From: Octopus sinensis
Taxonomy: Eukaryota
Length of the DNA: 64,000 nucleotides
Direction: 5' to 3'
Assembly: GCF_006345805.1 (NCBI RefSeq)
Contig: NC_043008.1
Coordinates: forward strand, 45,012,001-45,076,000
Of the stretch, positions 30,756 to 31,157 are shown in pieces (positions within the stretch are counted from its first letter, which is position 1; each line of letters begins with the position of its first letter). Both the position numbers and the translations under genes were made by a program. A model generated the notes under the pieces. It made no database searches, was not told where the DNA came from, and saw nothing but the letters and a program-made list of their open reading frames with translations.

Positions 30756-31157
30756 TCAAATATATCGATAAGCCGAATATACAATGACAAAGATTATCGA
30801 GACAAAGATAAACAAGACGATTACAATAACCTTCCATGTTTTCAATTCCGATGTAATCCGTTTGAAATGGAATTTCGCTGAATTTGGCATCCTGATTTCG
30901 GAAAGTCTGCGGAGGTTGAGCTTCGACATAGCTGTCGTCGATACGATACTATTGGAGCCACGCTTAACGTTTAGTTTATTAGCCAGAGTAAGAAGAGGAT
31001 CGTCAGGGGCTACATTCCCTCCATGCAGCGAGTGGCGCCGACTCGTTAATTCTGGAGGAATTGGTGTGGAAGATGCGCTGGGCAGTCGGTTGTTTGGGCT
31101 CGTCACCAGACTCATGCGCCGGCGCTGCTCGTGGCTAGTTCTTATCACGTTTCGCAT
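30756..31157 (-). CDS. 133-aa tail-anchored membrane protein with multiple PKA-type sites; phospholamban/sarcolipin-like candidate
   Basis: Non-repetitive, GC-richer island in (TA)n; CAAACATG start context; RRMS, RRHS, KRGS, RRLS motifs; C-terminal hydrophobic helix VIVIVLFIFVSIIFVIVY. Confidence 0.7.
   Translation of the reverse strand: MRNVIRTSHEQRRRMSLVTSPNNRLPSASSTPIPPELTSRRHSLHGGNVAPDDPLLTLANKLNVKRGSNSIVSTTAMSKLNLRRLSEIRMPNSAKFHFKRITSELKTWKVIVIVLFIFVSIIFVIVYSAYRYI

Follow-up and report, generated by a model that had tools for sequence, protein, structure and literature searches.

Does a short open reading frame (ORF) in the genome of Octopus sinensis encode a regulator of SERCA, in the manner of phospholamban (PLN) and sarcolipin (SLN)? 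The question arises from a 64,000-nucleotide stretch of DNA (positions 45,012,001–45,076,000 of contig NC_043008.1, forward strand; hereafter the window, in whose numbering positions are given unless a contig is named). An earlier reading of its letters, here called the original prediction, had proposed a tail-anchored member of the PLN/SLN family with several kinase sites.

A conserved single-copy gene

The 133-amino-acid ORF is a real, conserved gene. It lies on the minus strand, which the original prediction had left unstated, with its ATG at 31157–31155 and its TGA at 30758–30756 (Table 1); the plus-strand translation of 30756–31157 is broken by stops. As had been described, the ORF sits in a unique island amid (TA)n tracts. 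The island is 494 nt long, has a GC content of 44% and gives a single match in its own genome, and in a paralog search the 17 of 18 own-genome protein matches other than the ORF itself all had E values of at least 0.7. An ATG-initiated ORF of at least 133 aa appeared in 5 of 3,000 dinucleotide resamples of the island. Both the CAAAC–ATG context and the TATAG immediately before the ATG that had been remarked on are present; an in-frame stop lies 22 codons 5′ of the ATG, and 243 nt upstream contain no further ATG. Antisense to the ORF, the plus strand carries a 140-codon open frame (30772–31194) that has no Pfam match. This frame stays open in 612 of 5,000 synonymous shuffles of the minus-strand ORF and is thus likely to be a by-product. 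Elsewhere in the window, we take a 265-aa frame (54121–54918, plus strand) by eye to be a mariner-type transposase, and the sequences at 18443–19449 (minus), 40704–42565 (plus), 49801–50440 (minus) and 63143–63577 (minus) are presumably decayed non-LTR retrotransposon pieces, again judged by eye.

Table 1 Features of the ORF and its flanks, in window coordinates
Feature	Position	Strand	Basis
CDS (133 aa, then TGA), one coding exon on present evidence	30756–31157	−	Start Met and end column shared by homologs P0002 and P0005 core
Possible splice acceptor AG plus CAAAC before the ATG; A-rich start context	31158–31164	−	Sequence
Invariant N-terminal block, residues 1–17, with RRMS16; low-confidence predicted helix 4–18	31107–31157	−	17/17 columns, n = 3; model
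Kinase-type motif RRHS43	31029–31040	−	Residues 40–44 invariant (5/5); flanks 5/22 and 7/21
Motif KRGS68 (RRGS in both homologs)	30954–30965	−	Sequence; three-sequence alignment
Membrane-proximal block, residues 78–90, with RRLS86; PLN-like PKA-docking pattern	30888–30926	−	13/13 invariant
Predicted transmembrane helix, residues 110–128, after a basic flank (residues 95–109: 5 K/R versus 1 D/E)	30774–30830	−	Hydrophobicity; model
C-terminal end, residues 127–133; last five likely luminal or extracellular	30759–30779	−	6/7 invariant; topology inferred
AATAAA hexamer directly past the stop; possible poly(A) signal	30745–30750	−	Sequence; function inferred
Possible transcript 3′ end (weak hint)	30707–30708	−	Contigs guessed to be RNA, from 2 studies, end here with no loose ends

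A near-length protein search returned one match among 13 candidates, P0002 (129 aa, 64% identity, full length). An exhaustive search of 1.84 billion representatives returned three, P0002, P0003 and P0004, of which the latter two were dropped as homologs: they are long tandem-repeat proteins in which only short stretches match. A search of longer proteins gave one match among 7,999 scored, P0005, a 328-aa protein on a 2,337-base contig that contains a 126-aa core. The homolog set is composed of P0002 and P0005, which together with the window ORF form a three-sequence alignment. We infer that both come from other cephalopods; P0002 and the P0005 core are identical at 109 of 126 positions. The original prediction had staked itself on conservation of the ORF, and this is borne out: the two unnamed homologs are each ~64% identical to the ORF product over its full length, with common start and end and with the motifs kept. 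None of the protein-collection searches returned a named or annotated copy; judged by sequence, the protein is a new family, for which no named relative turned up in the searched collections.

All three sequences begin at the same Met and finish at the same column, and the gaps between them are frame-keeping only. From the N to the C terminus, the invariant columns (n = 3) number 17/17 (residues 1–17), 5/22, 5/5 (residues 40–44), 7/21, 6/12, 13/13 (residues 78–90), 11/19, 10/17 (transmembrane (TM) core) and 6/7 (tail). Conservation thus clusters on the kinase motifs and on the TM segment and tail, and is low in the linkers (5/22 and 7/21). Substitutions are conservative: 18 of 44 and 17 of 41 mismatches are BLOSUM-positive, and the observed mean was reached by none of 20,000 shuffles.

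Kinase-type motifs

The five basic kinase motifs that had been picked out are all found at the residues given for them (S16, S43, S68, S86 and T102). Those at S16, S43, S68 and S86, of the form RRxS or KRxS, are retained in all three sequences, three of the four inside invariant blocks, and T102 is retained in two of the three. Residues 1–107 contain five [RK][RK]x[ST] motifs, against an average of 0.72 in shuffles (P = 0.0002), and enrichment is found in each of the three sequences (P = 0.0002, 0.0014 and 0.0002).

The block around S86 has a basic residue at P−7 and hydrophobic residues at P−4 and P+2, but an acidic one at P+1 (E87). In the available text of PMC8970585, the key PKA contacts of PLN are Arg9, Arg14 and Ile18; their equivalents in the S86 block are K79, R84 and I88 in 3/3 sequences. 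More broadly, K79, R83, R84, S86 and I88 are invariant (3/3), with PLN positions 9, 13, 14, 16 and 18 kept as identical or basic residues, with Glu rather than Thr at P+1. According to the same portion of that paper, phosphorylation of PLN Thr17 lowers PKA binding 20-fold. Because E87 sits at the position of phospho-Thr17, S86 may by analogy be a poor PKA site. PKA is also not the only kinase to consider: the RRxS site of ALN is phosphorylated in cardiomyocytes via PKC rather than PKA, according to the part of PMC11588527 available, and on this example PKC may act in cells on an RRxS site of the ORF product. The likeness of these sites to those of PLN and ALN may reflect convergence on kinase recognition.

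A single predicted C-terminal helix

The single C-terminal TM helix of the original prediction is supported by one hydrophobic segment, with the best Kyte–Doolittle 19-mer (3.24) at residues 110–128. In all three sequences there is one peak above 3.1 at 110–128, followed by a five-residue tail, and the product is thus predicted to be tail-anchored by one helix, a feature of regulins. The basic flank and the five-residue tail would place the N terminus in the cytosol, and insertion would be into ER or secretory membranes. AlphaFold2 on the three sequences gave a mean pLDDT of 59, with a confident helix at ~101–130 and low confidence for residues 19–50 and 66–74. A low-confidence N-terminal half ahead of a confident helix corresponds to the layout of ALN and PLN in PMC8396278. 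Foldseek with this low-confidence model returned 11 matches at E ≤ 10, none at 0.001 and no regulin among them. The TM core and tail are kept past plain hydrophobicity (IIFVI-YSAYR-I), which would fit a binding surface.

A regulator or an adaptor

We tentatively favour the following reading: the gene, conserved, single-copy and likely of cephalopods, encodes a tail-anchored protein that regulates a pump or channel in the membrane and is phospho-switched at four invariant RRxS-type sites. The helix and tail would contact the membrane ion pump or channel, and PKA, PKG, PKC or CaMKII, acting downstream of GPCR signals, would phosphorylate S16, S43, S68 and S86. The added charge might then loosen blocks 1–17 and 78–90 from the membrane or the partner, and this loosening could relieve inhibition in graded steps, as with PLN and ALN. 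SERCA is the leading candidate for the partner, a specific identification that we regard as doubtful. An exon encoding M5–M7 of SERCA is found at C25:14296179–14296400 (minus strand), with M6 intact; it shows 100% identity to proteins recorded under the names Argonauta hians and Octopus bimaculoides, and we counted the presence of a SERCA whose M6 is identical to octopod SERCA in favour of the regulator. A second, more divergent SERCA-like exon lies on an unplaced contig (C8703:204157–204603, plus strand). Many unrelated single-pass proteins have the same layout, which we counted against the regulator.

The main rival reading is a kinase substrate or adaptor with multiple sites that is tethered to the membrane: the helix would only anchor or self-associate, and the phosphomotifs would recruit soluble readers (such as 14-3-3 proteins or trafficking adaptors), with no role at a pump. 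We consider this a realistic possibility. It is favoured by the location of the most invariant parts in the cytosol (17/17 and 13/13, versus 10/17 for the TM core), whereas the near-invariance of the TM segment's C-terminal half and of the tail would go beyond the needs of an inert anchor. It is favoured also by the best Pfam match, the endosomal protein calcyon (PF06387), which is sub-threshold (11.8–16.2 bits against a cut-off of 25; E = 0.011–0.24 for the protein and its fragments). Calcyon is likewise a small single-pass protein, but the match is mostly to the TM segment, a kind of hydrophobic stretch common to unrelated TM families; P0002 has no match to the profile, which itself runs ~70 positions past the matched part.

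The nearest clusters in the ESM Atlas are three unnamed, mostly arthropod ones of proteins of 112–128 aa, at 0.85–0.87 by features; as leads only, they too speak for an adaptor, and they are possibly a wider family with the same architecture. The only named cluster among those listed is TUNAR, whose 0.77 is in the chance range and a lead only. TUNAR (BNLN; PF21954) is similarly a C-terminal TM microprotein, but has 48 aa and is reported in vertebrates, and PF21954 does not list the locus. In the part of PMC8758570 at hand, TUNAR/BNLN is a SERCA binder that lacks the regulin motif, so the absence of that motif from the ORF product leaves room for a SERCA-regulating function.

Relation to the regulins

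Descent from the regulin clade itself (phospholamban, sarcolipin and sarcolamban), with an N-terminal extension added, is a separate matter and in our view improbable. The PLN/SLN membership of the original prediction did not hold up against the sequences: there is no Asn at the start of the TM segment, no xLFxxF motif, and no PLN or SLN match in Pfam or the PDB. The motif is common to all regulins according to the section of PMC8758570 available, which cites Anderson 2016, and it is present in 0/3 sequences, read by eye on the three-sequence alignment. Size differs too: regulins have ~30–66 aa, the largest being ALN with 66 aa in the available excerpt of PMC8396278, and the three sequences here have 126–133 aa.

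The profile searches agree. In the Pfam check against PLN and SLN, neither family scored the locus. PF04272 (PLN; cut-off 25 bits) is unlisted for the ORF product (P0001), P0002 and four fragments, in a search whose HMMER filters drop weak matches, and the TUNAR and SLN families are unlisted for the same queries. Genome searches placed the locus neither among the 25 matches from 91 candidates for PF04272, nor among the 13 matches for PF05366 (sarcolipin; 150 scored of 164 candidates), nor among the 19 matches from 128 candidates for PF21954 (cut-off 27 bits), and no match of the three families was above its cut-off. PDB sequence searches returned no regulin: the most they yielded was a membrane protein from a poxvirus and a VNAR, with E ≥ 0.2.

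Some resemblances speak for descent. An RRxS at residues 13–16 stands at the distance of PLN Ser16 from the start Met, within the predicted helix 4–18, and the S86 block retains the five PLN positions set out above. For the 13-residue stretch that had been matched to PLN by eye, the count of 7 is right against the PLN peptide quoted there, but P91 and A94 are lost in both homologs, which leaves 5 of 13. The internal Met77 (30929) that was to yield a PLN-sized product of 57 aa is present in the ORF but is Leu in both homologs, a further point against descent.

In the membrane, the position of PLN Asn34 (Lys in MLN, Asp in ALN) holds no Asn. K109, conserved in 3/3 sequences, could fill the place, but Lys at the flank is a generic feature of TM helices. 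With K109 set at Asn34, residues K106, F123, V124 and Y127 match landmarks of MLN, ALN, PLN and SLN in all three sequences, whereas PLN Leu31, Asn34 and Leu39, the Trp of SLN and SLB, and four of the five SLN tail residues are missed. We rejected this register, which looks good by eye but is no better than shuffles: in the best membrane register, 3 of 9 TM and tail SERCA-contact landmarks from the literature are matched (P = 0.056, 0.14 and 0.16 in three shuffles), within chance. With the register anchored on S86, the TM segment is shifted by ~5 residues; S86 precedes the TM-flanking polar residue by 23 residues, versus 18 in PLN. The proposed sarcolipin-like tail comes down to at most 2 of 5 residues (1–2 of 5 in any ungapped register), with TM and tail landmarks at chance level.

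Set beside individual regulins, the ORF product shares with PLN the tail-anchored layout, an RRxS with a basic P−7 and Ile at P+2 (the S86 block), and, in an N-terminal helix, an RRxS whose Ser is residue 16. It differs from PLN in length (133 versus 52 aa), in having four conserved sites rather than Ser16/Thr17, in a longer spacing from site to TM segment, in the absence of Asn34, Leu31 and xLFxxF, and in the lack of a profile match. ALN (C4orf3) is the best functional analog, with a long unstructured cytosolic domain and a C-terminal TM helix. It has in common with the homologs an RRGS site (mouse ALN, in the available text of PMC8970585; RRGS68 in both homologs) and with the ORF product an aromatic residue 14 past the polar flank residue, whereas the ORF product is twice as long, has four sites and carries Lys in place of the ALN Asp at the flank; the likeness is one of layout, not of sequence significance. 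MLN shares the Lys at the TM start (MLN Lys27) and a basic residue at −3. Sarcolipin, myoregulin and sarcolamban share a short tail containing Tyr and Arg, but are peptides of 31–46 aa, and the Trp of SLN and SLB is absent here. The family is described as ancient and very divergent in the portion of bioRxiv 2020.07.19.211243 available, which we counted in favour of a true homolog. Because several of the defining features tested are absent, we do not file the protein with the regulins, although it may still work alike; it is probably a convergent analog of PLN and ALN rather than a family member.

Transcripts, gene boundaries and neighbourhood

At least half of the words of the stretch are contained in 20 of 24 sequencing runs (6 studies), of which 18 count as RNA by guess and 2 are unclassified; RNA status is a guess throughout, as none of the runs containing the stretch is on record as RNA. 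The further four of the 24, also RNA by guess, contain no words of the stretch, which is not evidence of absence. Contigs from four runs, three of them RNA-like, cover the CDS up to 31153 with one contig each. Positions 31154–31284, which include the start codon, were skipped as a repeat in the contig comparison. The sole listed difference between contigs and window is at 30729, outside the CDS, and no joints were seen. The stop of the RNA-guess contigs at the possible transcript 3′ end (Table 1) is ~37 nt past the AATAAA; the large unclassified run and a third RNA-guess run extend past it, to 30678. The absence of cover at 31285–31375 in X6 and X8 carries no evidential weight. Transcription of the gene is plausible, and the gene is apparently unannotated, having been missed by annotation.

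Approximately at 45035–45208 (minus strand) lies an exon of an SLC6 transporter (SNF family, E = 5.5e-17) that encodes TM1 and ends in a phase-1 donor. It is 14 kb upstream of the ORF on the same strand, with a 100-N assembly gap (37722–37821) between the two; a second gap lies 15.6 kb before the window start. Nesting of the ORF in an SLC6 intron is unsupported, as a search of ~145 kb downstream with divergent queries turned up no further SLC6 exon. Of 36 matches, only a single TM8-type exon falls on C12. Another SLC6 gene is represented by seven exons ~34–48 kb past the window end (C12 ~45,109,700–45,124,400, minus strand; loci L029–L030). A TM8-type exon with 95% identity to that of this neighbouring gene is found on an unplaced contig (C618), which might be an allele or the rest of the paralog with the TM1 exon. 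Across the genome, 107 SLC6 exon matches are among the matches listed.

These surroundings bear on whether the ORF could be just the final coding exon of a larger protein, joined by splicing at the AG that precedes the ATG by five bases, which we consider quite unlikely. The AG is there, and a donor in phase 1 would keep the reading frame; the SLC6 exon has such a donor, a 1-in-3 coincidence, but the assembly gap separates it from the ORF. The read data leave the 5′ side of the ORF to the skipped repeat and are therefore silent on splicing at the AG, whereas the share of RNA-guess contigs running on in unlike sequence is 0 and conservation starts exactly at Met1 in 3/3 sequences. The listed length of P0005, 328 aa, would suit a larger protein, but both extensions look like untranslated DNA that was read through. 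The 72-residue N-extension looks non-coding (4% GARP residues) and has no separate exon match in the genome that contains the window. The C-extension opens with W exactly at the TGA of the window and then aligns with the stop-containing 3′ flank, and would thus most simply be a stop-read-through gene call. In the window, the stretch whose translation aligns with this extension is 30717–30755 (minus strand), which suggests a conserved 3′ UTR element.

That the minus strand holds no protein gene at all, but an ORF that arose by chance, the shadow of the plus-strand 140-codon frame or a conserved non-coding element, would be in keeping with the lack of a named or annotated copy in the protein collection, with an Atlas recognition of 1,677 against the 2,300 typical of known families and with the want of a containing run recorded as RNA, but is scarcely credible given that start, stop, frame and motifs are kept with conservative substitutions, that so few resamples of the island match the ORF in length, that the plus-strand frame can be explained as a by-product and lacks a Pfam match, and that an Rfam search of 27000–37700 gave no match.

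Significance

The locus would thus encode a strongly constrained small membrane phosphoprotein family, phosphorylation being predicted, for which a regulin-like function is a reasonable hypothesis from the sequences compared. In a literature search that mostly did not extend to subscription journals, regulins were described from vertebrates and arthropods and none was reported for molluscs. The most far-reaching reading, which we think unlikely, would make the protein the first regulator of SERCA from a mollusc. It would be a regulin that arose independently or diverged deeply, at twice the size of any known one; its four sites would act as a graded phospho-rheostat that tunes calcium re-uptake in the heart, muscle or neurons of cephalopods, and the unnamed arthropod proteins of 112–128 aa might belong to the wider family.

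The muscles and hearts of cephalopods are fast, and for the tuning of their SERCA by signalling the gene offers a concrete candidate that is cheap to test. Even if the partner is not SERCA, it would offer a strongly constrained small membrane protein, predicted to be phosphorylated, and with it a new family to characterise.
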